Origin: a virus
DNA: 64,000 nt
Direction: 5' to 3' (one strand)
IMG/VR virus record: IMGVR_UViG_3300045912_000129
Location: 1,653 to 65,652 of that record
Both the position numbers and the translations under genes were made by a program. A model generated the notes under the pieces. It was not told where the DNA came from. It made no database searches and saw nothing but the letters and a program-made list of their open reading frames with translations. Positions 38,322 through 64,000 of this stretch are shown piece after piece. Numbering within the stretch: the first letter of the stretch is position 1; each line of letters starts with the position of its first letter.

Positions 38322-39941
38322 TTATTGATACAATGAACGAGATAAGAATATAGAACCACAACGAGTTACGTCAACTACCATCAAACCGGCATTTTTTTCA
38401 ATTAAACGAGTGTAACCAGAAATACCTCCAGCAACACCTAAACCACCATCAGTAATGGGAAGACCTGATTTACCATCATGAGCATAATATTTACCATTGT
38501 AGGTAATATTATAGTCACAATAAGTTTCAGCAACCATACAAATATTATCTGTAGTAGAACCAGTACCTTGTTGTTTAGAATAACCAAAATCTAGAATATC
38601 AGCTCTCCATGAATCAATAGGTACGTTAGTTTTGACAGGGTGCATTTGAGGACAGAAATTAGCATTGTCATAAGCAGGATTTTCCATTACAGAAATATCA
38701 ACAGAAAAACCTTTATAGTGAGCAAAATATGAACCATAATCTAAGTGACGGAAATCTTCACCTTTACGGATAAATAAAGTATCAAGAGTGACAAATGAAC
38801 GTGAATCAAGTTTAATCATTCTATCAAACATTTTGCGGAACTCACGACCAGCTGCTAATACAATTTTTTGTTCACCTTCAGAAATTTTATCTTTCATAAT
38901 GCTATCAAACCAATCTTCTAGTTCTTCTAGTGTTAAGTTACCATTGTGCTGTAAAGTCCAACCAGATTCTAGTTGTTCACGCAAACCAGAAGAAGTAAGC
39001 ATTTGATGACCTTCAGGTGAATACAATGAACTTGATTGTTTACCAAACATCAAGGTGTTTTCAACATTACTATAAAGAGTATTCATTGCTTCAGCATCAA
39101 GCAATGCCATAAAACGAGAAAGAGGCTTACCTTCAACTTGATCTTCATAACGTACCCATAATTGACGTAAATATTTACCATATTCATCGTCAGAAAAATC
39201 ACCACGATCAGCTGCTTGTTTAGCACGACGAGCAGCTTTATCACTAACTTCTATTTTAACAGAGTGTTGTTGGGTTTGACCTTCAGATTCAAAAATAGAA
39301 TAAAATTGAAAACCACCACCATCTACGTTGTCTTCAGTTGCAACCAAAGATGATACCTTCATCCATTCACGATTTAATTGAATAAATTGAGCTGGTAAAT
39401 AAGCATTAGGATTATCAGTAATCATTCTCAACGTATAACGATAAGCGTTAGGACCAATTTGACGATTAGTACGAGAGAATGCACCGTTTGAACCAGAGTG
39501 GGGTTCTACGCGGAAACGATATTCATTAGATTGAGGTTGAATAATATCAGATACAGAAAACCAAGGTTTGTCTACAACGATATCAAAAGTTTGTAAGTTA
39601 AGACCAGGTTTAGGATCAGTACATACTACTTGAGTAATACGAGCACGTTGATCATTACCACCGGATAATTCCCAACGAAAACCTTGCCGATCAATTAATT
39701 TAAGTTTACCTTTAGCTTCGGTCATACCTACTAAAGGTTTACCATAATATTTGTTTGTAGCTGCGAAAATTTGAGCATAACCCATATTAAGTGTAGCTAA
39801 ATTCTCTGTACCAAAAGCTTCATGAATATGTTTACCTTTTACTTCACCGCTTACTAACAAACCGTCTGTAACAACAGTTTGACGTGGGCCACGGTTATAA
39901 TTAGCATAAGCTTTAGCATTATCAAATGTAACAGAAGCCAT
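38322..39941 (-). CDS. Major capsid protein (HK97 fold, crAss-like)
   Basis: 539 aa with VENTLMFGK...SSGLREQL. Position after portal/scaffold, and C/T-ending codon usage suggesting high expression. Confidence 0.85.
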   Translation of the reverse strand: MASVTFDNAKAYANYNRGPRQTVVTDGLLVSGEVKGKHIHEAFGTENLATLNMGYAQIFAATNKYYGKPLVGMTEAKGKLKLIDRQGFRWELSGGNDQRARITQVVCTDPKPGLNLQTFDIVVDKPWFSVSDIIQPQSNEYRFRVEPHSGSNGAFSRTNRQIGPNAYRYTLRMITDNPNAYLPAQFIQLNREWMKVSSLVATEDNVDGGGFQFYSIFESEGQTQQHSVKIEVSDKAARRAKQAADRGDFSDDEYGKYLRQLWVRYEDQVEGKPLSRFMALLDAEAMNTLYSNVENTLMFGKQSSSLYSPEGHQMLTSSGLREQLESGWTLQHNGNLTLEELEDWFDSIMKDKISEGEQKIVLAAGREFRKMFDRMIKLDSRSFVTLDTLFIRKGEDFRHLDYGSYFAHYKGFSVDISVMENPAYDNANFCPQMHPVKTNVPIDSWRADILDFGYSKQQGTGSTTDNICMVAETYCDYNITYNGKYYAHDGKSGLPITDGGLGVAGGISGYTRLIEKNAGLMVVDVTRCGSIFLSRSLYQ

Positions 39942-41234: not shown

Positions 41235-42782
41235 TTAGCCTTTGTAACAAATACCGTCATAAACTAATTGTTTAACTGAAAGTAGCGATTTAGCTACAGC
41301 TATTGCATTGATTAATGAATCGCAAAGTACAGAACAAGGGTCATATACTTTATAATTATTAATTTTTTCTAGTTTATTGTTTCTTAAATCTAAAGCCTGT
41401 CCTTTAGATATTTTAGATCTATACTCTTCGTAATGATTAATCAAATCACTATTAATAAGTAATTGTTTAAAAGGTTCTTCGATCGCATCTAATACAGTAT
41501 TGTAAGCTTTGTTATTTGAAGGACTGTATAAATCGTTTTTAACATTAATAAAAGTATAACCACCTCCTACGCATACTCCTTCTTTTATTGCTGAATAAAC
41601 AGCAAGAACAGCATCATCTAATCTATCTTTTATTTCTTTCATTTCTAATTCTGTACGACCTCCTGCGTATATAACAGCTACTCCTCCTGTTAAGTTAGCT
41701 AACCGTTTACGTAACCATTTTCTTTCCATATTTGATAGACTCAATTCATCGTTATCAGCATCTTCTTGTAACTTATACTTTATTTCTTCTATAATTTGTT
41801 CAACTAACTCTGTATCTTGTCTTCCGTCAAGAATAGAAGTATATAATTCTTCTACAATAACTTCACCAGCAAAACCTAAATTATTAACATCTTTAGCAGT
41901 ACCATTATCTACAACCCATGCTCCTGTTAAAGCTGCTAAATCATTCATTAAAGCTATTTTTCTATCACCAAATCCGTCATTTTCTACAACACAAACAGAC
42001 GCTCTACTTAATTCTAAGTATTGCTTAAGAGCTTTAGTAGCCATTGTTGACATGTCATTACAGAATATTAAAAGGTTAGAACCTAAACAAGCTTTTAAAT
42101 AATACTCGATATCTGATAGAGCGTGAATTTCATCATTTAGAATTAGAATATTTACATTAGTAGCTCTGTAAACCATTTCTTTAGCGTCATTAACCATAAA
42201 ACCTTCTAACCAACCTCTATGTAATTTCATACCTGCAGTTTTAACTACTACAGTTTCATTTCTTGGTGAAGTTTTTACTTCTATATCTCCATATATACCA
42301 ATTTCTTTTATAATGTCATAAATGAACTCACCAATCTTTTCATCGTTAGCTGAAATAGAAGCTACTTCTTTTAATAGTTCAGTATTAGATTCAATACTTT
42401 TAGTATACTTAGTTTTAATAGTAGTAATAATATCATTAAGAGCTTTATCAAATTCTTTAGCTAATTGATAAAAAGAATAACCTTCAGCTAACAAATCAAA
42501 ACCTTTATTAATTAAGTATTGAGCCAAAATCATAGTTGTTGTAGTACCATCTCCTGAAGAAAGCATTGTTTTAACAGCTGCTTCTTTAAGAACTGTCATT
42601 ACCATTGCTTCATAGCTATCATTACTAGAAACATGTCTAGCTACAGAAACACCATCCTTAGTAATATGAGGTTTATTTTCTTCAGTATTATAAAGTACTG
42701 TTCTACCTTTAGCACCAAGAGTTAATTTAACTGTATTAGCTAGTTGATTAACAGCTTTTAAAATCAATTCAGTAGTTGTCAT
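41235..42782 (-). CDS. groEL: Phage-encoded group I chaperonin (GroEL-like)
   Basis: Motifs VKLTLGAKGR, ITKDGVSVA, GDGTTT, GFGDRK, RLANLTGGVAVI and KDRLDDAV...EGVCVGGG. No GGM tail. Confidence 0.92.
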   Translation of the reverse strand: MTTTELILKAVNQLANTVKLTLGAKGRTVLYNTEENKPHITKDGVSVARHVSSNDSYEAMVMTVLKEAAVKTMLSSGDGTTTTMILAQYLINKGFDLLAEGYSFYQLAKEFDKALNDIITTIKTKYTKSIESNTELLKEVASISANDEKIGEFIYDIIKEIGIYGDIEVKTSPRNETVVVKTAGMKLHRGWLEGFMVNDAKEMVYRATNVNILILNDEIHALSDIEYYLKACLGSNLLIFCNDMSTMATKALKQYLELSRASVCVVENDGFGDRKIALMNDLAALTGAWVVDNGTAKDVNNLGFAGEVIVEELYTSILDGRQDTELVEQIIEEIKYKLQEDADNDELSLSNMERKWLRKRLANLTGGVAVIYAGGRTELEMKEIKDRLDDAVLAVYSAIKEGVCVGGGYTFINVKNDLYSPSNNKAYNTVLDAIEEPFKQLLINSDLINHYEEYRSKISKGQALDLRNNKLEKINNYKVYDPCSVLCDSLINAIAVAKSLLSVKQLVYDGICYKG

Positions 42783-52804: not shown

Positions 52805-52961
52805 GGTTTCCCTAGTTAAATAGGGTTTTTACGCCTATATATACTGACCAAATATAGGCAATATACAGGTCCCCGCGCTATGGGTTAATAGCACGAAGAT
52901 CAACCCCATTATTATAATGGGGTTTCTTTTTATAAACCATTTTGCAACGTAGTTAGCATTT

Positions 52962-53596
52962 GGGGGCAGAGAAAAGGTATAGCTTAGGCTATATTCGCGC
53001 ATCTGTCCCGGCAAGAAGACCTGTCGAGCGCGAACAGGCTATCCTACTCTAGTCGGGAAGTAGGACGAACAGAACCGACCTCCACTTCGGTGTGGAGAAA
53101 TTTCCCTTCGGGGAGCCCTTGTACAGTGGGTGAGGTCAACCTCAACTGTACGATGAACCGCCATGGTGACATGGTACTTAACTCGGTAGTGGGAGTTAAG
53201 CTAAGGGTTGCAAGAAGTTACTCTACGGAGTAATGAGCACTCACTACGGCAGTACCCTACGGGGTGAGGTGTCCTAACAGGCCCTCTCATGAACTGCCCA
53301 CACAGACCCAGTGACGACTGGTAATCTGTGGGATGACACACCGCTGACGAGCGGGAATCGCCTAGTTGACTAGGCGTGGGTTGATCACCCTAACAATCCG
53401 TTCCTACACGTTATGTAGGTTGGTATATCTCGTCGTTGGGAGTATACCGTAAAAAGAAAGAAGCCTGTGGCACGCAGGTGAGCACTCAACGATGACCTCA
53501 CGTCTTACTAAAAATCAAGTAAGAGTGTAGGAAAAAGGAGGAGCGGAGTGGCTTTTCCTAGGATCAATGTGGTTACCACATAAACGATCCAGTGCA
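52962..53596 (+). ncRNA. Candidate large structured ncRNA 1 (about 640 nt), upstream of tRNA-Glu
   Basis: No ORF in the track. More than 15 consecutive hairpins, including C(UUCG)G at 53085 and 53106 and C(UACG)G at 53223 and 53257. Confidence 0.6.
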
Positions 53597-53606
53597 AAAA
53601 TTTTAA

Positions 53607-53678
53607 AGCCCATTCGTCTATCGGTTAGGACGTCAGATTTTCATTCTGAAAAGAGGAGTTCGATTCTCCTATGGGCTG
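53607..53678 (+). tRNA. trnE: tRNA-Glu(UUC), no encoded CCA
   Basis: Acceptor AGCCCAT/ATGGGCT, anticodon arm TCAGA-TT TTC AT-TCTGA, T-arm AGGAG-TTCGATT-CTCCT. Confidence 0.92.
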
Positions 53679-53706
53679 CAAAGCTACTTGCATTTGCAGT
53701 AGCCTA

Positions 53707-53895
53707 ACCTCCCCTACAGCTGCTATGCCGTGTATTGGCTCTAAAGCACTTAGGGGAGGGATTTAATTTTATTCTCTCTTATACTGCAATGCCCTGGCCA
53801 TTTGGAGCAGCGGCAAGACAGGTAAGGAGAATAAAATATCAACAAACCTCCCCTACAGTTGCTTGGGTTCAAGCCGTGAAGCACTTAGGGGAGGA
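53707..53895 (+). repeat. Two copies of a CCTCCCCTA...TAGGGGAGG irregular hairpin
   Basis: Copies at about 53707-53760 and 53847-53895 share ACCTCCCCTACAGYTGCT...AAGCACTTAGGGGAGG. Confidence 0.75.
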
Positions 53896-54152
53896 TTTTA
53901 ATATTAAAACTCCGTTGGTCTATCGGAGTATAAAACATAGACTCCCGCGTTATTCCTGCGGGTATCCCCTCTGGGGATAATAGCTCCCTCATAGAGGGTA
54001 TATCTGACATTTTGCCGTGGTGTCAGATGAATTAGAATGCGGCACCTCGCTAGCATACCGAGGTATATAAATAGTATGCTTATTTTTTAATTCCCCTTAC
54101 GGGGCGTTACCCTTGACGAGACAAGGCGTGACCCTGGAAGGGGTTTTGAATC

Positions 54153-54296
54153 ATGACGATTAAAGAAATATTTAATCTTCTGGTCGACATGTACGACCAG
54201 GAGCTCTACTCCCTCGAGCGTCACCACGTAGGTGATGCTCAATTGTTGGTAGCCTTGGAAAAGGCTATCAACATCTTGAGACCTTTCGTTAAGTAG
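54153..54296 (+). CDS. 47-aa protein (paralogue A, HVGD motif); not in the ORF track
   Basis: MTIKEIFNLLVDMYDQELYSLERHHVGDAQLLVALEKAINILRPFVK. Similar to the next ORF and preceded by the same leader. Confidence 0.65.
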   Translation: MTIKEIFNLLVDMYDQELYSLERHHVGDAQLLVALEKAINILRPFVK

Positions 54297-54495
54297 TGAA
54301 AGGTCTCAAACTCCGTGTCATTCCGGAGTCTAAACATAGAATGACAAACCGCGTTACCTTCCGCGGTATATAAGTAGAAGGCAGTAATATTGACCGCCTA
54401 CACCTGGCGGTATATAAATAAGGTGTATTATTTAATCCCCATTAGGGGCGTTACCCTTGACGAGACAAGGCATAGCCCTGGAAGGGGTTTTCGAT

Positions 54496-54666
54496 ATGGT
54501 GATTACTGAAATGAGCCCAAAGGGCTTAATCAATTTAATATTCAACCTTTATCAGGTTGAATATTATAAAATGCGGGGTCACGTAGGTGATCCCGCCTAC
54601 ATGGCCCTGCTCGAAAAATTAATCGAGCAGCTCGAGGCTTATGTAGGGGAAGACTGGTTCCTCTAA
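54496..54666 (+). CDS. 56-aa protein (paralogue B, HVGD motif)
   Basis: MVITEMSPKGLINLIFNLYQVEYYKMRGHVGDPAYMALLEKLIEQL. Start revised to the ATG at 54496. Confidence 0.65.
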   Translation: MVITEMSPKGLINLIFNLYQVEYYKMRGHVGDPAYMALLEKLIEQLEAYVGEDWFL

Positions 54667-54892
54667 CATAAGCCTCAACTCCGCGTCATTCCGGAGTATA
54701 AATATAGAATGACAACCACGCAACCTCCCGTGGTATACAAATAGGAGGCAGAAGAAATGACCTCGCTGACATACCGAGGTATATAAATAGTATGTTATTT
54801 TTTGCAGTGTAGTTGCACTGCCACCATAAAGTAGTAAACGGGGTGTAAGCCGTTATAACTACATATTGTTCACCTTCCATCCCCGAACTATT

Positions 54893-55507
54893 ATGGAAGG
54901 GAAGAAAAAGGATCGCGAGATCCGTCACTCAGCCCGTAAAATACACGGGTTGAAGAGTCTTCCTTGTCCGCCGATAGTTCGGTGGATGGGAGCATTTGGC
55001 ACTTTTAATGGGGAAGAAAGTGCCAAATGGGAGGCCTCCGACACACGAATGAAGTGTGCGGAGGTACTACTGCCCAATGGCAATGGGTCTTTTATGTCCA
55101 AATGCGGACAGAGATCCATTGGTATTGGTCTCTTAGTAGATCAAGCCAGAACACCATTGTTCAGAGCGTACAACTACGACGCTTGGACGAACAATGGTAA
55201 AAAGGGTTCTGTACCCTTTGGCGACTCTACTAAGTTGTACAGCATGTACAAAACCCACGAAAACTTAGTTTATGTAACTAAGTATCGTGAGGTGGCGGCC
55301 ATGCTACAACTCCACCATAACTACAACAGTTATTTGTGGACAGAGGCCACCATTGGAGACGGGAAGCGAGCACCCGTCTACAAGGCAGTAGTTTGCGATA
55401 CTGCTCGCAGCTGGGCAGTGCGCCAGCAAGCCATAAAAATGGCTGCAGCACTGAACGTTGAGGTCATCTGGGTAAACGACCTCAAGGCTATGAACTTCCC
55501 CACATAG
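54893..55507 (+). CDS. Hypothetical early protein (204 aa)
   Basis: ATG at 54893, followed by a terminator. Confidence 0.65.
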   Translation: MEGKKKDREIRHSARKIHGLKSLPCPPIVRWMGAFGTFNGEESAKWEASDTRMKCAEVLLPNGNGSFMSKCGQRSIGIGLLVDQARTPLFRAYNYDAWTNNGKKGSVPFGDSTKLYSMYKTHENLVYVTKYREVAAMLQLHHNYNSYLWTEATIGDGKRAPVYKAVVCDTARSWAVRQQAIKMAAALNVEVIWVNDLKAMNFPT

Positions 55508-55567
55508 CTCCTAGCAGACGGCACCTCTCTGGTTTTGCAGAAGCTGCCGGAAAAGAAACAAAAAAAA

Positions 55568-55597
55568 AGGAGGTAGACCAGACTACCTCCTATTTTT
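55568..55597 (+). terminator. Intrinsic terminator (possibly bidirectional)
   Basis: A-run, AGGAGGTAG-ACCAGA-CTACCTCCT, then ATTTTT. Confidence 0.8.
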
Positions 55598-55638
55598 CAA
55601 CTAAAATTTTCTTTGAAAGAGAGAAGAAAATTTTTTAA

Positions 55639-56175
55639 CGGGTGAGGGGTGAAATTCCCTGTGGCTAACGACCCGGCTACTATATACATGTTGACATGTA
55701 ATTATAGTTAGCGAACAATGTAGCCTATGGTACTCTCCCAATAAAAGGGTAGTCTTATAAGACTATAGGGAAACCGAGAGTACGTTTACAATAATGACGA
55801 TGATGCAGCTTTACCTGCTAGAAACATCTAGTTATATGTAAACGAGGTGAGTCCTCCAAGTGCGGCACCAGGCTGAGTGAGGGGATGCTGGTGCATTGTT
55901 ACTATTTCCTGCGTAGTAACAATTATTAAAGGTGATAGTGGTACAATCACCTTGCAGTGTTACAAAGAGAGATACTAGGGAGTGGCGTCCCGAAAAGATA
56001 CCTGGCAAGTATCAGTATCGAGAGTAACAAACGGGAATATCGTACCAACGAGGAACACAGGTTCCATAGTCTGCCCGTCCGATAAAGTCCCAATCCCAAA
56101 GGTAATGGGGATACTTATTGGAGAAAGAAGAGCCGTGCCACGCGGTAAAGTATGTGGGAGAGTAAACTCTAAATC
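55639..56175 (+). ncRNA. Candidate large structured ncRNA 2 (about 540 nt)
   Basis: Nested stems (GGCTAC/GTAGCC, GTACTCTC/GAGAGTAC, CGTTTACA/TGTAAACG, GCACCAG/CTGGTGC, TTGTTACTA/TAGTAACAA, AAGGTGAT/ATCACCTT). No credible ORF. Confidence 0.6.
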
Positions 56176-56627
56176 ATAACCAGCTGAAGATAGATACTTT
56201 ATATTTATCTCCAGCTGGTTATATTAAACCATTTGCAGTGTAGTTAGCATTGAAACATAAAAAGTAAAGGCGTTGATCTTACGCCTTAATTGATGCCTTA
56301 ATTGGCTAGAGAAGAGATCAAACCCCTGGTTATACTGTTCGCCTCCGAAAGCGCTGCTTCTGACTTGGCAACATGTATAAAGAATCCGACAGGGCATATC
56401 ACCGTTCTTAGTAGAGCTTCTTGGGTGATAACGATTCTAATATTAATTTAACTCCCGAAATGAAACCAAGCGTTCCTTTTTGAAAGAAAAAGAAAACGCT
56501 TGGTTTCTATCAAACCCTTTGCAGTGTAGTTAGCATTAACCGCGAGAGGCTATCCGCGGTATACAAATAGATGAGCCATTAATTGTTAATAAACCCTCCC
56601 GCTAGCATATCGGGAGTAATAAATAAT

Positions 56628-56828
56628 ATGCTTGTTATGACTCCAATCTTTATTCAGGTGGGGACTACCGTCTACGTGGGCGGTGGTCTCCACCTTGCCC
56701 AGTTTGCCATAGACTGGGCAACAAGAATAGGGAAGGAGTATACTGTACTCCCTTTCGGAGTACAATTCTCCTTCTCATCAGTAGACATGGCCTCACAGGC
56801 CTATGATCTACTGAGATCTATGGCTTAA
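56628..56828 (+). CDS. Small hypothetical protein (66 aa)
   Basis: ATG at 56628 or 56638. The listed TTG start runs through a pseudoknot element. Confidence 0.5.
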   Translation: MLVMTPIFIQVGTTVYVGGGLHLAQFAIDWATRIGKEYTVLPFGVQFSFSSVDMASQAYDLLRSMA

Positions 56829-57036
56829 TTTTATCCCGCTGGCATACCGGGATTAATAAATAGTATGCTTATTTTTAACCATTTGCAGTGTAGTTAGCAT
56901 TGAAACAACTCTTGACGAGGAGTATAAACTACGTATCAGTTCAATCGTCATACGAACTGATTAGCCCATGACGAAATCGGAGTGTGGGACCTCCAACTGT
57001 TTTTTTTACTTCATTAATTAATATATATATTAAATA

Positions 57037-57942
57037 ATGAAGTTTCTAGTTCTCGCCAAACCACTCGCGGTAGAGTTTGGCAGAGAATCCCTTATAGAGG
57101 AATTTATCTCCTCTATGGGGGCGCGTGTGCTTGCGAAAAAGCACATGGTGTGCGATTCGTCCAGGATCGCACGCCATTACCAGCAATTTGCTGGCAAGCC
57201 TTTTTTCCAGGGGCTTGTAAAATATTATACTGGAAAAAATATTGTCGCATATATGTGCGAGTGCGACAATATTGAAGTTCTCATGGCTATCCGCGAAGCC
57301 ATGGGGACAGCTAAAGTTTCTCCCAATTCATTTCGGGAGAAACTTATTGGAGACGTCTATGCAGAACGTTTCCAATCAGTGGGTGTCATTGACAATGGCA
57401 TCCATTGTAGCGATTCTGCTGAGGAAGGACTGCGAGAAATTGCAGTATGGTTTGGTGTGCCACCGACTTCCTCTCGCACAGAAATGGCACACAAGGCGGT
57501 ATGGAAGATTCTTTCTTCCGTATCCAAAGTAGACTCTCTGCAATACGCAGGGGGCGAACACGATGGCACTGCTATCGAGGGTAGTGTCATTGATTTGGAT
57601 TACCGCCTATTGACTAACGACATGCCCTTTGTCGTTAGCCAACTCGAAAAAAAAGGGCTAGTCATTGACAAGCGTAGTGTTGATGACGAAAGTGGGGCTG
57701 AATATGTTAAATTTGAAATCCGTTTTACGGGTGGCAAATGCGACATTGCAGTAGTTCCCACTGCAGCCTACGCAAACCAAGTAAGTAAATCTCATCTGAT
57801 TTACTTGGTTTCTGATACTCTCAAAGATGAGGTAAGAGCTATTAAAGCTAGTGCGAAAGCTACTGGTGATAAACAGCTCTACAAAGACGTAAAGCGGCAA
57901 TGTCGCAAACGTCTACTTGAGAGTATCAACTGGGTGGACTAA
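57037..57942 (+). CDS. ndk: Nucleoside diphosphate kinase fused to a Pol-beta-type nucleotidyltransferase domain
   Basis: N-terminal NDK: KP, HY...GKPFF..LV.Y and NGIHCSDS (phospho-His), ending EIAVWF. C-terminal: YAGG...GTAIEGSVIDLDY and KCDIAVVP. Confidence 0.8.
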   Translation: MKFLVLAKPLAVEFGRESLIEEFISSMGARVLAKKHMVCDSSRIARHYQQFAGKPFFQGLVKYYTGKNIVAYMCECDNIEVLMAIREAMGTAKVSPNSFREKLIGDVYAERFQSVGVIDNGIHCSDSAEEGLREIAVWFGVPPTSSRTEMAHKAVWKILSSVSKVDSLQYAGGEHDGTAIEGSVIDLDYRLLTNDMPFVVSQLEKKGLVIDKRSVDDESGAEYVKFEIRFTGGKCDIAVVPTAAYANQVSKSHLIYLVSDTLKDEVRAIKASAKATGDKQLYKDVKRQCRKRLLESINWVD

Positions 57943-58165
57943 ATAAAGAGAATGTGACGTCCACTCTTGCGTACCACGAGCGCATACTCGTGTAGCTTTT
58001 TTCTAATACGTTTTGTAGTTACCCAACAAAACGTATATACCTATGCCGTGATTCTATTTACTAGATAGCGTAGGTGCAAAGGATACTGGACACCTTTGAA
58101 CAGGAGCATTGGCAGAGTATAGATGTACTCCCCTCAGCCATTAACCACTCAATAAATAAATAAGA

Positions 58166-58720
58166 GTGGATAAAAAAATCTTCTTGTCTATCTACCAGCA
58201 GATAGACACAGATTTTCAGAGCTACGCAGCCAGCGTATGCTCTGTTTTAGGAGGAAACTTCCTCCCTGGTCCCATGAAAACATGGGAATCTTGCAGCCGT
58301 AAAGCAAAAGCAGACGGCTGCGAGATTAGTGACTTGAAAGACATCATCAGATGTTCTTTCATCTTCACTACCGAGGAGGAAGTTATGTATGCGATGAATC
58401 GCATACAATCCCTTGCTGAAGTTGTACGAGTAAAAAATCGTATGACTTCTAAAGGATACAGAGATGTGCTCATCAATGTATCCTTCATGGGAATTGTATG
58501 TGAAATACAATTGCATACAGCTCTTGGTTTAGCAGCCAAAGACGGAAAGGTGATCAATCACCCGACCGTTAATACTTGGTCTGCTAAACTTGGCCCCTTT
58601 GCTGGATGGGGTCACAAGCTCTATGAGCTTGAAAGAGCAGCCTCCCATCCGACTGTTGCAGCTATCATTGCTGTAATGGGTGTATGGTATTACGGATTAG
58701 TCCGTAAACTACTTTCGTAG
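58166..58720 (+). CDS. RelA/SpoT synthetase-like (small alarmone synthetase-fold) protein
   Basis: PMKTWES..RK, DLKDIIRCS, KGYRDVLINV, CEIQLHT and GHKLYE match SYNTH-domain motifs. GTG start. Confidence 0.7.
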   Translation: MDKKIFLSIYQQIDTDFQSYAASVCSVLGGNFLPGPMKTWESCSRKAKADGCEISDLKDIIRCSFIFTTEEEVMYAMNRIQSLAEVVRVKNRMTSKGYRDVLINVSFMGIVCEIQLHTALGLAAKDGKVINHPTVNTWSAKLGPFAGWGHKLYELERAASHPTVAAIIAVMGVWYYGLVRKLLS

Positions 58721-58781
58721 TACCATACAAAAAACTCAGCTATCCAAGTTTCTCGGTTTAGAGGATAGCGAACTACTGTTT

Positions 58782-58900
58782 ATAAGTTACAAGCAGCGTG
58801 TAGTTAATCTACAGGTTAAGAAGATGTGTTATCTTCTCAGGCTGTCTCTGCCAGGGCACAAAAGTGCGTCTAGTAAAGAGGTTCGCAGCTTGTAACTTAT
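58782..58900 (+). ncRNA. Multibranch RNA-like element closed by a perfect 13-bp stem
   Basis: ATAAGTTACAAGC (58782-94) pairs with GCTTGTAACTTAT (58888-900). Inner hairpins TGTAG/CTACA, GAAGAT/ATCTTC and GCAC/GTGC. Confidence 0.5.
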
Positions 58901-58912
58901 AAAATAACTTAT

Positions 58913-59287
58913 ATGACAAAAGTATTCAATTTTGGACACCCACTGTCCCAAAGTGCTATCACTAAGATCGAACAATACTTCGGTCAAGTACAGCACATCA
59001 AAGTGGGTGTCCAATTAAATGTTTTCGATGCGGACGCACCAGGCATCGAACAACAAGTATTAGACGTGGTGCGACCATACGCTACCGATTTTAACGGAGC
59101 GGAGCGTATGGTAATCATTAGTCCAGGAATGAGCAATGCTGCATGGGTATTAGCAGCAATCATTCATGGATTATCGGGGAGATTCCCCGAACTTGTTGAG
59201 CTTCGTCTCAACTCCGATAAAGTCTTTGACTTTTATAGAGTCATCGACTTGCAGGAGTTTAGAAACGAAGTCCGCAAGATCCGTTAG
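58913..59287 (+). CDS. csx15: Csx15-like protein (type III CRISPR accessory, candidate ring nuclease family)
   Basis: FNFGHPL, IEQYFG, PG...AAWVLAAIIHGLSGRFPELVELR and IDLQEFR match the Csx15 pattern as recalled. Confidence 0.78.
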   Translation: MTKVFNFGHPLSQSAITKIEQYFGQVQHIKVGVQLNVFDADAPGIEQQVLDVVRPYATDFNGAERMVIISPGMSNAAWVLAAIIHGLSGRFPELVELRLNSDKVFDFYRVIDLQEFRNEVRKIR

Positions 59288-59349
59288 CAAATATACCCTG
59301 ATTAACAGCTTATGGCACAGGGTATTTAATAACTATAAATCTAAACACT

Positions 59350-59703
59350 ATGATAAAAATAACTAGTGTTTCACAAATATTAAAAGAGGGTTTTACCCTC
59401 GACTTCCTAGTAGGTAAATACATCGCCTACAAAGGATGTATTATCCCCATAATTAACACTCCAACTCTGGAGGTTAATCAATGGGGATTACTACCAGACG
59501 AGATAGAACATCTCGTCAATTTGGATGAGGGGCAAATAGAGTATGAAACTACGTTTGTAGTTTCAGATAATCAAAAAGATTTAGTTCCTTTTCTTGGACT
59601 AAATCCATGCGCTCTCTTCTCACTGGAGGTTAAAAAATACTCCCCTCATACAAACATGAGTGAGGAGGATTTTAAGTACCTCCTTAATTTATTAACAATT
59701 TAA
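59350..59703 (+). CDS. Hypothetical protein
   Basis: 117 aa with ATG and an A-rich leader. Confidence 0.55.
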   Translation: MIKITSVSQILKEGFTLDFLVGKYIAYKGCIIPIINTPTLEVNQWGLLPDEIEHLVNLDEGQIEYETTFVVSDNQKDLVPFLGLNPCALFSLEVKKYSPHTNMSEEDFKYLLNLLTI

Positions 59704-59934
59704 AAATAGCCAAATCAAACCATCTTTGCAGTGTAGTTAGCACTAAAACATATCCCGCTAGCATACCGGGATCAATAAATAGCATGCTTCTACTACTAAG
59801 CAGACGTTTCGATACGTCGTGTTAAATAAGGGCTTAGTAGTAAGGGAGCGTGTCCCGTAGATTAAAACGCTGACTGACAGGAAAGACTGTCTTACCTAGC
59901 TGTGAACTCGTATGAGGTGAGGCTAGGGACATCC

Positions 59935-59995
59935 GGGGTAGAAAATGGCGATTGCTGTAACAACAGCAAAGTGGGTTCGATTCCCACCTATCCTT
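59935..59995 (+). ncRNA. D-armless tRNA-like element (61 nt)
   Basis: Acceptor GGGGTAG/CTATCCT, canonical T-arm GTGGG-TTCGATT-CCCAC, a 10-nt linker in place of the D-arm, and a 7-bp hairpin with a 4-nt loop in place of the anticodon arm. Confidence 0.6.
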
Positions 59996-60082
59996 GCAAA
60001 TTCCCGCTGGCATAACGGGTAAAGTATGCTATATTATTAACCAAACCCGCCGTGCCGGGGTATAATAGCACGATTTAAACGT

Positions 60083-60304
60083 ATGAAATTTAATTTTCAA
60101 ACCATCTTCATTCCCTCCTTGAATTTGGAGGTGAATGAGTTCCAATTTTTGAGCCTTCGGGCTCAAGTTAAACAAGGAGTACTCCCTCCCTTTGATTTTA
60201 CCGATACCAACGGTAAAGTCATTGGAAGCGTAGACTCCAACGGTCGTGTAGAAGGAGAATACCCCTTCACCGACCTTAACGACATGTTAACTACTCTTTT
60301 GTAG
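60083..60304 (+). CDS. Hypothetical protein
   Basis: 73 aa, flanked by pseudoknot elements. Confidence 0.55.
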   Translation: MKFNFQTIFIPSLNLEVNEFQFLSLRAQVKQGVLPPFDFTDTNGKVIGSVDSNGRVEGEYPFTDLNDMLTTLL

Positions 60305-60464
60305 TTAGCATGTCCCCGCTGGCATACCGGGTAAAGTATGCTACCGTAACACCTCGGTTATAATAAGGTGCAGTAATGACTCTGCTGGTATACCGGAGTA
60401 TAAACTAGTATACTGAAACTTCGTTTCTTTGAAAGAAAAAGGAAACGATTAAAAAATTAAACTT

Positions 60465-60737
60465 ATGATGAACAAAGAAATTTTAGATCTCCTTGAGATG
60501 ATTCTCAAAGGAGATCAAGAGGCAATTGCCTCTATTATAAATACCCAAATCAATCGGTTGCAAATTGCAGCCGACGATTGGGACAACAACCATCACGGTA
60601 GCAATAGCTCCATCTACCGTGAGTATCTAGAGATGGAGCTTAGTACAGCAACTGGTATGATTGCTGTACTGAAAAAACATAATCATACCACACTTGCAGA
60701 TAAACTCAGCATTGCTGTAGCTTATTCTGCAGTGTAA
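60465..60737 (+). CDS. Hypothetical helical protein
   Basis: 90 aa with an A-rich leader. Confidence 0.55.
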   Translation: MMNKEILDLLEMILKGDQEAIASIINTQINRLQIAADDWDNNHHGSNSSIYREYLEMELSTATGMIAVLKKHNHTTLADKLSIAVAYSAV

Positions 60738-60856
60738 TTTTTTCCGCTAGCATACCGGGTAAAGTATGCTATCAAACCCTTTGCAGTGTAGTTAGCTATA
60801 CCGCTTGCATACCGGTTATAATAGTATGCTATTCATTAACCAAAAACAATCAGACC

Positions 60857-61102
60857 ATGAAAATAAAAATTAAATCCACCAGTGCATTAGCACGGTGGAT
60901 CAAAGCCATCGAAAACAGTCTCAATATTGCTCGTTCTGAGCAGTATGAGGCAGCTTATATGGGGGAAGATTCTCTTTTCTACGACGAAATCGTAGAAAAA
61001 GGAGAGTCAACTCTTCGTCTCATTGAGAGAAGAGTTAAAAAACTCTCCCCCAAAAAACAAGCAATTCTTAAGCCTCTCATTGAGAGAGCTTGGAATGCTT
61101 AA
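60857..61102 (+). CDS. Small helical protein, paralogue of 63557-end
   Basis: STSALARWIK...LRLIERRVKKLSP...ILKPLIERAWNA aligns with the last ORF. Confidence 0.65.
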   Translation: MKIKIKSTSALARWIKAIENSLNIARSEQYEAAYMGEDSLFYDEIVEKGESTLRLIERRVKKLSPKKQAILKPLIERAWNA

Positions 61103-61221
61103 AACAAATCGCGTAACCTCCCGCGGTATATAAGTAGGAGGCGTTTATAGTTAACACTAGCCCTTTGACAGCTGGGGCTATATAAATGAGCTGTTAATTC
61201 TTTTGAAAAACCAATAAAACT

Positions 61222-61638
61222 ATGAATATGACACACAAAAAAGAAGAAGTAGTTGTAAAACCCTACTTACTAAACATCAGTAACCACCCCTCCTCTGGAT
61301 GGACTGATAAACAAATCATGGCTGCCCGAAGAGATTATCGGGCAATAATTGACTTCTCTTTTCCAAACGTCGACCCTGAGCTCGACGAGGAAGGAGTTCG
61401 TCAACTAGCAGAGAAAACCATTTTTGACATTCTTTGGCATTTGCCAGAGAGAAGTGAGGCATTAGTAGCCCACGTCATGGGCGAAATGTCCTTGGTATAT
61501 CAAATGGTCAATCTGCTGGAGTCTAAAAACATCACTTGTATTTGCAGCACCACCAAGAGGATTGTGGAGGTGCTTCCAAACGGACAAAAACTCAGCAAGT
61601 TTGAGTTTGTCCGTTTTAGACCATATGTAGCTAAATAG
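61222..61638 (+). CDS. csx20: Csx20-like protein (type III CRISPR ring nuclease family)
   Basis: LLNISNHPSSGW...Q..AA, DFSFPNVDP, HVMGEMSL, CSTTKR and FEFVRFRPY match the Csx20 pattern as recalled. Confidence 0.82.
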   Translation: MNMTHKKEEVVVKPYLLNISNHPSSGWTDKQIMAARRDYRAIIDFSFPNVDPELDEEGVRQLAEKTIFDILWHLPERSEALVAHVMGEMSLVYQMVNLLESKNITCICSTTKRIVEVLPNGQKLSKFEFVRFRPYVAK

Positions 61639-62169
61639 CACATATGGTTTAACCGCTAGCATACCGGTTATAATAGTACGCTAACCGTGTAATCTCTCAC
61701 GGTATATAAATAAGAGTAGTATTGACCCTGCTTGCATATCAGGGTATATAAATAGTATGCTTAACTAAACATAAAGGAGTAGAGTACTCGCACCTCTATT
61801 TTCTTTTATGTTTATTTTAATTTATCAACTTTACTTCTTATGGTTTTTAATTTAATTACTTTTCTTTTTTTTCTTTAAGACTTCCCAGGAGTATCTTGTA
61901 GTGCGAGCAAGAGAAACTGGGTGTATCCTATTCTTTTGAGGACAAGAATAGGAAAAATAAAGTCCTCCACTGCTTTAGTGTCATTTTGATACTAAGGCAG
62001 TGTTTTAACCAGATGTTCTTGAAACAAAGAGAACACTGGTTATTAAACTTTTTGCAGTGTAATTAGCTGCAAACCTCTTTAGCATATAGAGGTTATAAAG
62101 AATATGCTGTTTTATGCTTGAAAGAAATTAAAAAGTCTTTCAAGTTTTATTAACATAAAATTTATCACT

Positions 62170-62529
62170 ATGAATCTTCTCTCTTCACTCGACAGTGTAA
62201 ACTTGTTACTGGCAGCAAGTTTACCCTTTGAAGCTTTCTATGAGCAATTCATGGAGAGCTTAACTTTTTGCCGTGAATTTCATGGTAAAGGTTTTGACAA
62301 AGTTGACTTTACCAACTTTGACAATGCCAGCCTTAAAAGACCTGATCTTCTCTTGGGTGTATGTTTTACACCCAAGTATGTGTTCCTATATGCTTACCAT
62401 GGCAAATGGGAGCACTCAAGTCGAGTCAAACTCTCTGCTGAAACGTCTCTTTCAGACTACTTGTCAGCAGTAGAGTCTGTTACCAAAACCTTTGCAGAAA
62501 TAGTTTACAACTACCTCAAAGGTTTGTAA
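62170..62529 (+). CDS. Hypothetical protein
   Basis: 119 aa with ATG. Confidence 0.55.
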   Translation: MNLLSSLDSVNLLLAASLPFEAFYEQFMESLTFCREFHGKGFDKVDFTNFDNASLKRPDLLLGVCFTPKYVFLYAYHGKWEHSSRVKLSAETSLSDYLSAVESVTKTFAEIVYNYLKGL

Positions 62530-62566
62530 AAAACCCCGCTAGCATACCGGGTAAAGTATGCTAATT

Positions 62567-62728
62567 ATTGAGTAAGCTAACGGCTTACAAGTGCAGCAAG
62601 GAGAAATGCCTTGTGATGCAGCCAGCTAGTCATATGACTAACGGTATATGTTATGCAGACATCTGAGAGATGATGCTCCACATATAGCCCGGAGATGGTG
62701 TTTAGTTAGTCCACTAAGCTTACTCAAT
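62567..62728 (+). ncRNA. Multibranch RNA-like element closed by a perfect 12-bp stem
   Basis: ATTGAGTAAGCT pairs with AGCTTACTCAAT. Inner hairpins CAAGG/CCTTG, TAGTCA/TGACTA and CATC/GATG. Confidence 0.5.
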
Positions 62729-62832
62729 TTTTAATGAGTGATCTTGAAAGAAATGACAAGATTGCTTATTACTAACAGCGTAACTTCTCAAGTTTAAAAG
62801 GAAAGTTAATCTTGTGAATTACGCTATAATAT

Positions 62833-62903
62833 ACTTCATTCGTCTAATGGTAAGACGCTAGATTGTCTATCTAGAGATAAGAGTTCGATTCTCTTATGAA
62901 GTG
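62833..62903 (+). tRNA. trnD: tRNA-Asp(GUC), no encoded CCA
   Basis: Acceptor ACTTCAT/ATGAAGT, anticodon arm CTAGA-TT GTC TA-TCTAG, T-arm AAGAG-TTCGATT-CTCTT. Confidence 0.92.
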
Positions 62904-63047
62904 CAACCGTGTAACTTTCACGTTAAAAAAGTACTCTGTAACACTCAGAGTTTAAATATAAAGTGTTTTCACTATTTATTTTTTCACCACCCCGCAAGGG
63001 CGTTACCCTTAACGAGATAAGGCCATGCTCTGGAAGGAGATTAAACC

Positions 63048-63377
63048 ATGGTAAAAGTACAGTCAATCAGTGTAGTGTGCCAGCTAAAAGGCTTGAAAAG
63101 CCTTGTTAACAAGTACTGTCTTCTTCCTAGTGGAGAGATAGTGTTTGTTAATAAATGTCCAAAGATAAAAATGGACCATACAGGGAAAACTATGGTAGAG
63201 TTTAATGGGGATCAATGCGTCCCCATTGAGAGAACCATAGCGTTTTCCAAACACCAAGAACCATTAACTAATTTTCAAACCCTAGCTAACAAGCTATGGT
63301 GTTTGAAGATTAGGAAAAGACCCTCAGACGTACCACTTGGTGTTTACCGGGTGTGTAAAACGTTGATGGGGGTATGA
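63048..63377 (+). CDS. Hypothetical protein behind the third structured leader
   Basis: 109 aa. Confidence 0.55.
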   Translation: MVKVQSISVVCQLKGLKSLVNKYCLLPSGEIVFVNKCPKIKMDHTGKTMVEFNGDQCVPIERTIAFSKHQEPLTNFQTLANKLWCLKIRKRPSDVPLGVYRVCKTLMGV

Positions 63378-63556
63378 TCTTGGTAAAACCGCGTAACTCC
63401 CGCGGTATACAAATAGGAGCAGCATTAATCCGCTAGCATACCGGTTATAATAGTGTGCTATATTAAACCTTTTGCACTGTAGTTAGCAACAAACCTCGTA
63501 AGCACACCGAGGTATATAAGTAGTGTGCTATTCATTAACCATAAAAACATCAAACC

Positions 63557-64000
63557 ATGAAAAGAACTTTTCAGACGAACCAAGAGTTCGTCGCAGCAAT
63601 GTACCAAATGAGAGCCATCAGCACCCTCACTAAATGGATCAAACAGATCCAATCCATTCGCAGCATTGCTCGTTATGAAGAGCATGATGCGGTTATGGGA
63701 GGAGCCGACTCCTCTCTGTACGAGGTTCTCGTTCCTTCAACCGATGCTTCTCTTCGCATCATTGAAAGGGAAGTTGCAGAACTCTCCCCTGAAGACCAAA
63801 CCATCTTCAAGCCTCTTATTGATAGTGCTTGGGGTGCTTATTCCCCAACCGAAAAAGCTGCACACTTAGAGGAGGACCAAGAGTTCTCTGAAACAGTGTG
63901 CAAAAAAGCGGTCAGCACACTCAGCAAATGGCTGAAAAATCTCCAAGAAATCCGTATCATTGTTCGTCATGAAAAACATGATGCGATTATTGGAGGAGGA
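63557..64000 (+). CDS. Internally repeated helical protein (3'-truncated; not in the ORF track)
   Basis: ATG at 63557, open to the window end. AISTLTKWIKQIQSIRSIARYEEHDAVMGG is repeated as AVSTLSKWLKNLQEIRIIVRHEKHDAIIGG. Confidence 0.7.
   Translation, partial: MKRTFQTNQEFVAAMYQMRAISTLTKWIKQIQSIRSIARYEEHDAVMGGADSSLYEVLVPSTDASLRIIEREVAELSPEDQTIFKPLIDSAWGAYSPTEKAAHLEEDQEFSETVCKKAVSTLSKWLKNLQEIRIIVRHEKHDAIIGGG

Follow-up and report, generated by a model that had tools for sequence, protein, structure and literature searches.

What does a virus gain from an enzyme in which a nucleoside diphosphate kinase (NDK) is joined to a nucleotidyltransferase (NTase), and with what does such an enzyme work? 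The question is raised by the protein P0001, encoded by an open reading frame (ORF) at 57037..57942 of a 64,000-nucleotide stretch of viral DNA (IMG/VR record IMGVR_UViG_3300045912_000129, positions 1,653 to 65,652), which was analysed as a whole and is called the window below. A sequence-only reading of the window had described this ORF as a complete NDK domain fused to a minimal NTase with the sequence pattern of SMODS, OAS and class I CCA enzymes, and had known of no such fusion. We found that the gene most probably encodes a bifunctional nucleotide enzyme, in which a predicted-active NDK is followed by a predicted-active minimal Pol-beta NTase, both with their active-site residues intact, and that this pair nearly always travels with, or is fused to, a third enzyme, a RelA/SpoT homologue (RSH). 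Together the three form an NDK–NTase–RSH cassette that had not been described in phages; its enzymes are of known kinds, and the NTase represents a new sequence family. The literature that we searched held no description of an NDK coupled to an NTase or to an RSH enzyme in phages, in agreement with that earlier reading.

The NDK domain proved as complete as the sequence-only reading had held it to be. The Pfam NDK model (PF00334) matched residues 4-140 with profile positions 4-131 of 135, scoring 65.8 bits against a cut-off of 27, and the profile of the family found solved NDKs at E values of about 1e-14. All of the catalytic residues, K8, Y48, R86, R100, N120, H123, S125 and E134, were present at canonical positions, with the catalytic His123 in N-G-I-H-C-S-D. 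When 30 family members were aligned, with identities down to ~25-35%, these eight residues were kept in 29-30 of the 30. The score was far under the NCBIfam equivalog cut-offs, the housekeeping Ndk model NF001908 giving 69.9 bits where 155 are needed, indicating that this is a divergent viral NDK and not a cellular orthologue. The phage protein thus has the full fold and every catalytic residue of housekeeping Ndk, but differs from it in being viral and divergent and in carrying an extra C-terminal enzyme domain.

The C-terminal domain was recognised by its signature and not by any family model. The motifs GG-x3-GT...DLD (residues 172-188, nucleotides 57550-57600) and CDIAVVP (residues 235-241, nucleotides 57739-57759), from which an NTase had been proposed, were both located and were conserved among the relatives; because they are kept across 30 divergent members, they are not chance matches. 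The Pol-beta signature hG[GS]-x9-13-Dh[DE]h is present as A-G172-G173-x12-D186-L-D188-Y, and the key residues of the domain are G172-G173, T178, D186-x-D188, D216, K225-x-E227 and G233-K234-x-D236. Two basic helices close the domain of ~160 residues at its C-terminus. D186 and D188 were kept in 28 of the 30 aligned members and D236 in 29; D216, G233, K234 and Y245 were invariant, and K225, E227, K270 and Y282 were each kept in 29. Where P0001 has the glycine noted earlier in place of the usual serine, four members read the canonical GS. Two proteins, P0026 and P0032, have lost the DxD and retain the NDK residues. In the structure model, D236 on strand 233-241 and D216 in the loop before it are the candidates for the third carboxylate. 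The domain is lined by numerous invariant polar residues, which would suit a pocket for a small ligand. No Pfam, PHROG, PADLOC or NCBIfam model recognised residues 141-301, and the same scans gave no NTase family match at E<=10 for any of 28 aligned family members.

We then placed the domain by its predicted fold. The AlphaFold model of the full-length protein consisted of two confident domains (pLDDT 93.8, pTM 0.88), and the C-terminal domain modelled alone reached a pLDDT of 92.9. Foldseek against the PDB matched this domain with a probability of 1.00 to Cid1, TUT7, GLD-2, Pol mu and Pol lambda (TMq 0.5-0.57), showing that the Pol-beta fold demanded by the sequence-only reading is there. In the VIA all-against-all structure alignment, which covered 48,161 chains, the best match was GrpB (2nrk_A, Z 10.5, 149 of 165 residues aligned), closely followed by the UPF0157 domain of mycobacterial CoaE (6n39_A residues 215-401, Z 10.4); the two alignments spanned 149-155 residues. 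Lower Z scores were obtained for CdnE (8.4 and 8.2), SpoT (8.2), Pol X (8.0), SAS2 and ANT(6) (7.9 each), the class I CCA enzyme AfCCA and CapRel (7.5 each) and OAS1 (7.3). When ESM-Atlas was searched, both by features and by shape, it returned clusters of GrpB (TM 0.71), DUF4269, NTP_transf_2 and ANT(2''). The nearest structural relatives are small NTases of ~170 residues, of the nucleotide or small-molecule kind (GrpB, DUF4269, ANT(2'')). Among the viral structures of BFVD there was no close match, the best being a Tupanvirus ORFan at TMq 0.66.

These models indicate that the C-terminal domain is an NTase of the Pol-beta fold, and the modelled structure favours describing it as a minimal NTase of the GrpB-like kind that founds a new sequence family. 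With GrpB/UPF0157 (PF04229; 2nrk, 6n39) it shares its size and a minimal Pol-beta core followed by two C-terminal helices, and in CoaE the UPF0157 domain, too, follows a nucleotide kinase in one protein. It differs in not belonging to that family at the sequence level, PF04229 having found no match in 28 members at E<=10 nor in the record translated in all six frames. It also differs in being phage-borne and in its partner, which in CoaE is a P-loop kinase and in the phage protein an NDK with a ferredoxin-like fold and a phospho-His.

The signature and fold that had suggested a relation to SMODS, OAS and class I CCA enzymes were thus upheld, but the family assignment was not, as the resemblance is at the level of the fold only (Z 7-8.4). 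The domain is neither a CD-NTase nor a class I CCA enzyme. With CD-NTases, OAS and cGAS (CdnE 6e0m and 6wt9, OAS1 4rwn) it has in common a Pol-beta core with G[GS]...DxD...D, Z scores of 7.2-8.4 over ~145 residues, a range that VIA calls common, and a possible immune-signal context through a Csx15-like neighbour. Unlike them it has only 160 residues, about half their size, and lacks the two-lobed cGAS-like architecture of ~300 residues; there was no PADLOC or Pfam match and no Cap effector or CBASS context, and the gene lies in a phage and not in a defence island. Class I CCA enzymes and TUTases (AfCCA 4x4n, Cid1 4e7x, TUT7, GLD-2) share fold and signature and include Foldseek's best matches, but the phage domain has no neck, body, tail or PAP-associated domain, is only 15-22% identical to them, matches none of their family models and aligns with them at Z 7.2-7.5, below GrpB.

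To find out whether the pairing is a property of a family, we collected relatives. A word-index search recovered 15 full-length homologues with 37-96% identity, and an exhaustive HMMER search with the C-terminal domain alone recovered 21 cluster representatives. In all of the ~30 metagenomic relatives that were aligned or scanned, the NTase domain is immediately preceded by an NDK domain in the same protein. The pairing also occurs within far larger proteins, of 1423, 1464, 1920, 3252 and 6293 residues. One of these, P0030, carries ddrB-ParB, ART-PolyVal and a Sno/SNF2 helicase alongside NDK–NTase, and another, P0024, a RecD/PIF1-type helicase, parts of a class II CCA enzyme and an AAA_33 kinase. 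The large proteins belong to the polyvalent type that was surveyed in PMC5512222, and NDK is not mentioned in that survey. Among ~185,000 species representatives of cellular genomes, the narrow family alignment found two loci: that of P0024, on a contig assigned to the bin of a Dojkabacteria metagenome-assembled genome (MAG), and one on a 3.7-kb contig from the bin of a Bernardetiaceae MAG. In 50,697 deposited phage genomes tblastn did not find the C-terminal domain and returned matches to NDK only, several of them probably host-derived, and a search of IMG/VR viral contigs with the full-length alignment gave no relatives apart from the source record. The cassette is phage-restricted and essentially absent from cellular genomes.

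The third member of the cassette is encoded by the next gene of the window. The Pfam RelA_SpoT model scored this gene alone at 16.5 bits, below threshold. When a profile of its family was compared with the PDB, Tas1 (6ox6) was matched over the whole catalytic domain with an E value of 1.1e-11 and SAS2 with 1.5e-5; solved CapRel was not among the matches at E<=1. The family alignment identified the invariant synthetase residues K38, K46, D59-x2-R62, G-Y98 and E113-x-Q115. The product is, as judged from these profiles, a Tas1-like RelA/SpoT-homologue pyrophosphokinase. It resembles the Tas1/Apk-type (p)ppApp synthetases (6ox6) and the RSH domains of polyvalent proteins, but differs from the RSH effectors described so far, none of which has been reported with NDK–NTase, in being linked to two other nucleotide enzymes. 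Where they are carried by phage-type polyvalent proteins or MuF fusions, RSH domains have been described as weapons that manipulate the host (PMC5512222).

RSH was fused to NDK–NTase in seven architectures and was an adjacent gene in seven loci, together 14 lineages. Family hidden Markov models placed it C-terminal to NDK–NTase in P0019, P0021, P0023, P0024 and P0028, and N-terminal in P0020 and P0027. It is an adjacent gene in the window and in L002, L005, L007, L009, L010 and L013; in L005 the RSH gene lies upstream with an overlap of 11 nucleotides, and in L009 downstream with an overlap of 4. Only L006 and L011 among the standalone contexts, both very short contigs, and P0030 among the fusions were without RSH. 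Because RSH is so recurrently fused or adjacent, we regard the NDK–NTase–RSH cassette as the unit of selection. In L011, the gene upstream of NDK–NTase (3-626) is the C-terminal part of LigA, an NAD-dependent DNA ligase (E 5e-30), cut by the contig end.

How might the three enzymes work together? RSH enzymes move pyrophosphate from ATP onto the 3'-OH of a purine nucleotide, and those of the Tas1 type make (p)ppApp. CoaE, to which the GrpB fold is fused in actinobacteria, is also a nucleotide 3'-OH kinase, phosphorylating an ADP-containing nucleotide, and this parallel is suggestive. For the substrate, product and biological role of the cassette we infer the following, with confidence a little short of even: it would be a nucleotide-conversion cassette for host takeover or counter-defence, its enzymes acting in series on purine nucleotide polyphosphates. 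The NDK would convert NDP to NTP through phospho-His123 and so recharge ADP and GDP to the NTP that the RSH uses as donor and acceptor. The RSH would add pyrophosphate to the 3'-OH, giving a (p)ppApp- or (p)ppGpp-like product. The NTase would then transfer NMP to this 3'-phosphorylated nucleotide, or take it as donor, to yield a modified nucleotide or a dinucleotide. The phage might deploy the product early in infection, for host shut-off or for interference with nucleotide-based immunity. Within the alarmone cycle, the recharging of GDP to GTP is generally attributed to Ndk (10.1101/350843, PMC7552824). The position of the cassette, in an arm of small ORFs beside a Csx15-like cyclic-nucleotide binder, also supports this proposal.

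Several points weigh against it. The closest fold names no substrate, since we know of no catalytic function for GrpB. The link to CCA enzymes in four lineages points to tRNA 3' ends and not to free nucleotides, Foldseek's best matches are RNA 3'-terminal transferases and the C-terminal helices are basic. In the window itself a terminator-like hairpin stands between the fusion gene and the RSH gene.

The main rival, on our estimate an unlikely one, assigns the cassette to the maintenance or repair of tRNA 3' ends: the NTase would extend damaged or blocked ends alongside a CCA enzyme, the NDK would supply CTP and ATP, and the RSH would act on the CCA end. Class II CCA-adding enzyme parts (PolyA_pol, HD and tRNA_NucTran2_2) are indeed fused to the cassette in P0023, P0024 and P0028, and such an enzyme is encoded by an adjacent gene in L005. 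In P0024 (L012 2-9757) and P0028 the cassette lies between the PolyA_pol head and the HD/tRNA_NucTran2_2 domains, as if inserted, and in P0023 it precedes an uninterrupted class II CCA enzyme. An AAA_33 kinase of the PNK type, found in P0024 and L007, would fit this function too, as would the structural likeness to Cid1, TUT7, GLD-2 and AfCCA (Z 7.5) and the basic helices. There is also a precedent in toxSAS enzymes of the FaRel2 and CapRel kind, which pyrophosphorylate tRNA CCA ends (PMC11782079, PMC11245113). However, the CCA link was seen in only 4 of ~16 lineages and not in the window, and the C-terminal domain lacks the neck, body, tail or PAP-associated parts by which RNA is held in place. 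By its profile the RSH resembles the nucleotide pyrophosphokinase Tas1 (E 1e-11), and solved CapRel is absent at E<=1. Moreover, the by-product of an NTase is pyrophosphate and not NDP, so that an NDK is not needed for recycling.

The tight and sometimes overlapping gene pairs recall the toxin–antitoxin modules of toxSAS enzymes (PMC7229694), and the cassette might accordingly consist of a toxic RSH and its neutraliser. NDK–NTase would then be an immunity protein or regulator that nucleotidylylates the RSH, as in MntA/HepT, or consumes its product and restores ATP. The Tas1-like nature of the RSH would suit a toxin, and minimal NTases serve as antitoxins in MNT–HEPN systems (PMC5512222). We consider this improbable: the three domains are often joined in a single chain, in either order, in P0030 no RSH could be detected alongside NDK–NTase, the cassette is found in lytic-type phage and polyvalent proteins and not in addiction loci, and protein nucleotidylylation needs no NDK domain.

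It could also be that the NDK alone is enzymatic, raising the NTP supply for phage replication, and that the C-terminal domain is a non-catalytic element for folding, oligomerisation or the regulatory sensing of nucleotides. The best fold match, GrpB/UPF0157, has had only folding or regulatory roles proposed for it, in CoaE of M. tuberculosis (PMC2765170), and the loss of the DxD from P0026 and P0032, which keep the NDK residues, is consistent with such a role. Nevertheless, 28 of 30 members keep the three carboxylates and ~10 further polar residues over deep divergence, and the constant linkage to RSH would be left unexplained, which makes this proposal distinctly improbable. Both of the last two explanations are less likely than either serial nucleotide conversion or a function at tRNA 3' ends.

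We next examined the setting of the gene. The virus record is 66 kb long and ~43% complete by estimate, and the window makes up most of it. A major capsid gene of the crAss type was found at 38322..39941 (PF23898 Crass_capsid, E 6e-37), and the source is, by this marker gene, a crAss-like phage of the Crassvirales. From 1 to 52 kb the DNA has a GC content of ~25-31% and carries minus-strand genes of very large size. At ~52 kb the strand switches and the GC content climbs abruptly, exactly there, to 40-45%; the arm beyond, in which the NDK–NTase fusion lies, contains small plus-strand ORFs and two tRNA genes. The 175-kb contig L002, a distant relative, shows an identical strand switch followed by NDK–NTase, RSH and Csx15-like genes in the same order, with a milder GC shift (0.25 to 0.33). 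That the cassette is an artefact, of chimeric assembly or of a chance motif in a gene running past an NDK, has in its favour the jump in GC content from 0.28 to 0.45 at ~52 kb, but we regard the chance as negligible, as the family is conserved, the fold model is confident and L002 shares the strand switch, the gene order and the rise in GC content. Since L002 repeats this layout, the junction is not an assembly artefact, and chimeric assembly was rejected as the cause of the GC jump.

Other features of the window were noted in passing. A Cpn60/TCP-1 family chaperonin-like protein (PF00118, E 3.5e-40) is encoded just upstream of the capsid gene block, at 41235-42782 on the minus strand. The small ORFs at 60857-61102 and 63557-64000 are paralogues, with ~75% DNA identity over 90 nucleotides (repeat families D11 and D14). 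The genes for tRNA-Glu(TTC) and tRNA-Asp(GTC), at 53607-53679 and 62833-62904, are 73% identical in their 3' halves (D13). An isolated hairpin resembling a tRNA T-arm, GGGTTCGATTCCCAC, occurs at 59969-59989 on the plus strand, where neither ARAGORN nor Rfam calls a tRNA; it gave a weak partial match to the tmRNA/tRNA clan (12.8 bits).

The genes and signals around the fusion are listed in Table 1.

Table 1. Features of the NDK–NTase locus, with positions in the window and the basis of each assignment.
Feature	Position	Strand	Basis
NDK–NTase fusion gene, P0001, 301 aa	57037..57942	+	open ORF; full-length homologues; two-domain model
NDK domain, residues 4-140	57046..57456	+	PF00334, E 4.7e-18
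Predicted GrpB-like minimal Pol-beta NTase domain, residues 145-301	57469..57939	+	structure model; no sequence-family match
Predicted Tas1-like RSH pyrophosphokinase, 184 aa	58166..58720	+	family profile vs PDB
Csx15-like CARF protein, 124 aa	58913..59287	+	NCBIfam CAS_Csx15, PADLOC Csx15
117-aa ORF, last gene ahead of next promoter-like motif	59350..59703	+	ORF only
Upstream intergenic elements: hairpin/pseudoknot-like repeat and promoter-like motif	56833..56907	+	repeat families D1, D2, D5
Terminator-like hairpin (57975-57992) and T-tract	57975..58002	+	33 nt past fusion stop codon

A hairpin/pseudoknot-like repeat at 56833-56876 lies upstream of the fusion gene, and the promoter-like motif TTTGCAGTGTAGTTAGCA lies within 56866-56907, ~130 nucleotides ahead of the ATG. 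The motif has eight intergenic copies within the small-ORF arm, often preceded by the hairpin/pseudoknot-like repeat, and the next copy after the fusion (D1) is at 59709. The copies at 56866 and 59709 thus bracket four genes, those of the fusion, the RSH, the Csx15-like protein and the 117-residue ORF. The repeat families D1, D2 and D5 have 7-8 copies each between genes from 52.9 to 63.5 kb. The intergenic regions from 52900 to 63540 are dense in short repeats and include several pseudoknot-like families, made up of a hairpin, an A-rich linker and a downstream complement, in 4-7 copies each and usually just upstream of small ORFs. Co-transcription of the four bracketed genes is plausible from the positions of these motifs. 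The hairpin after the fusion gene weakens the reading as a single operon, and because of it co-transcription of fusion and RSH is not assured. The 117-residue ORF had no family match in the Pfam, PHROG, PADLOC and NCBIfam scans and was not conserved among the other cassette loci compared.

The Csx15-like protein was recognised over its full length by NCBIfam CAS_Csx15 (E 1.4e-16, 60.9 bits against a cut-off of 35) and also by PADLOC Csx15 (E 2e-11). Its orthologue in L002 (11596-11961, 55 bits) occupies the same position after the cassette. As a constant partner it was rejected, being present in the window and L002 only and absent from L005, L006, L007, L009, L010 and L013. Csx15 was not seen in phage genomes according to PMC13148439, and a 2026 preprint (10.64898/2026.10.26.761840) describes ~20 metagenomic viral homologues, for which the name AcrIII-3 is proposed. 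The protein encoded two genes after the fusion appears to be a further viral example, in Crassvirales, with a putative ring-nuclease role.

Phage–host conflict runs largely through nucleotides, whether alarmones, cyclic oligonucleotides or the depletion of NTP and NAD. A more specific version of serial nucleotide conversion, which we offer as a long shot, is that the cassette makes a novel nucleotide, such as an NTP that is 3'-pyrophosphorylated and thereby 3'-blocked, or a dinucleotide polyphosphate derived from one. Such a product could act as a poison of, or decoy for, the host's synthases and sensors of nucleotide signals (such as Cas10, CD-NTases and CARF/SAVED effectors), and in this phage the cassette would make up, with the Csx15-like binder, a two-pronged anti-signalling operon.

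Collectively, an RSH enzyme is locked to two more nucleotide enzymes across deeply diverged members, with the domains in either order, in separate genes and within giant injected polyvalent proteins, and linkage so strong usually marks a pathway or a complex. The module is small (~300 and 180 residues) and readily testable. The GrpB/UPF0157-like fold is widespread in bacteria and, through CoaE, linked to an essential gene in mycobacteria, and the phage enzyme could give the first functional handle on this NTase fold. The product of the cassette could turn out to be a novel nucleotide of phage origin, or point to a new means of handling alarmones of the (p)ppApp type.

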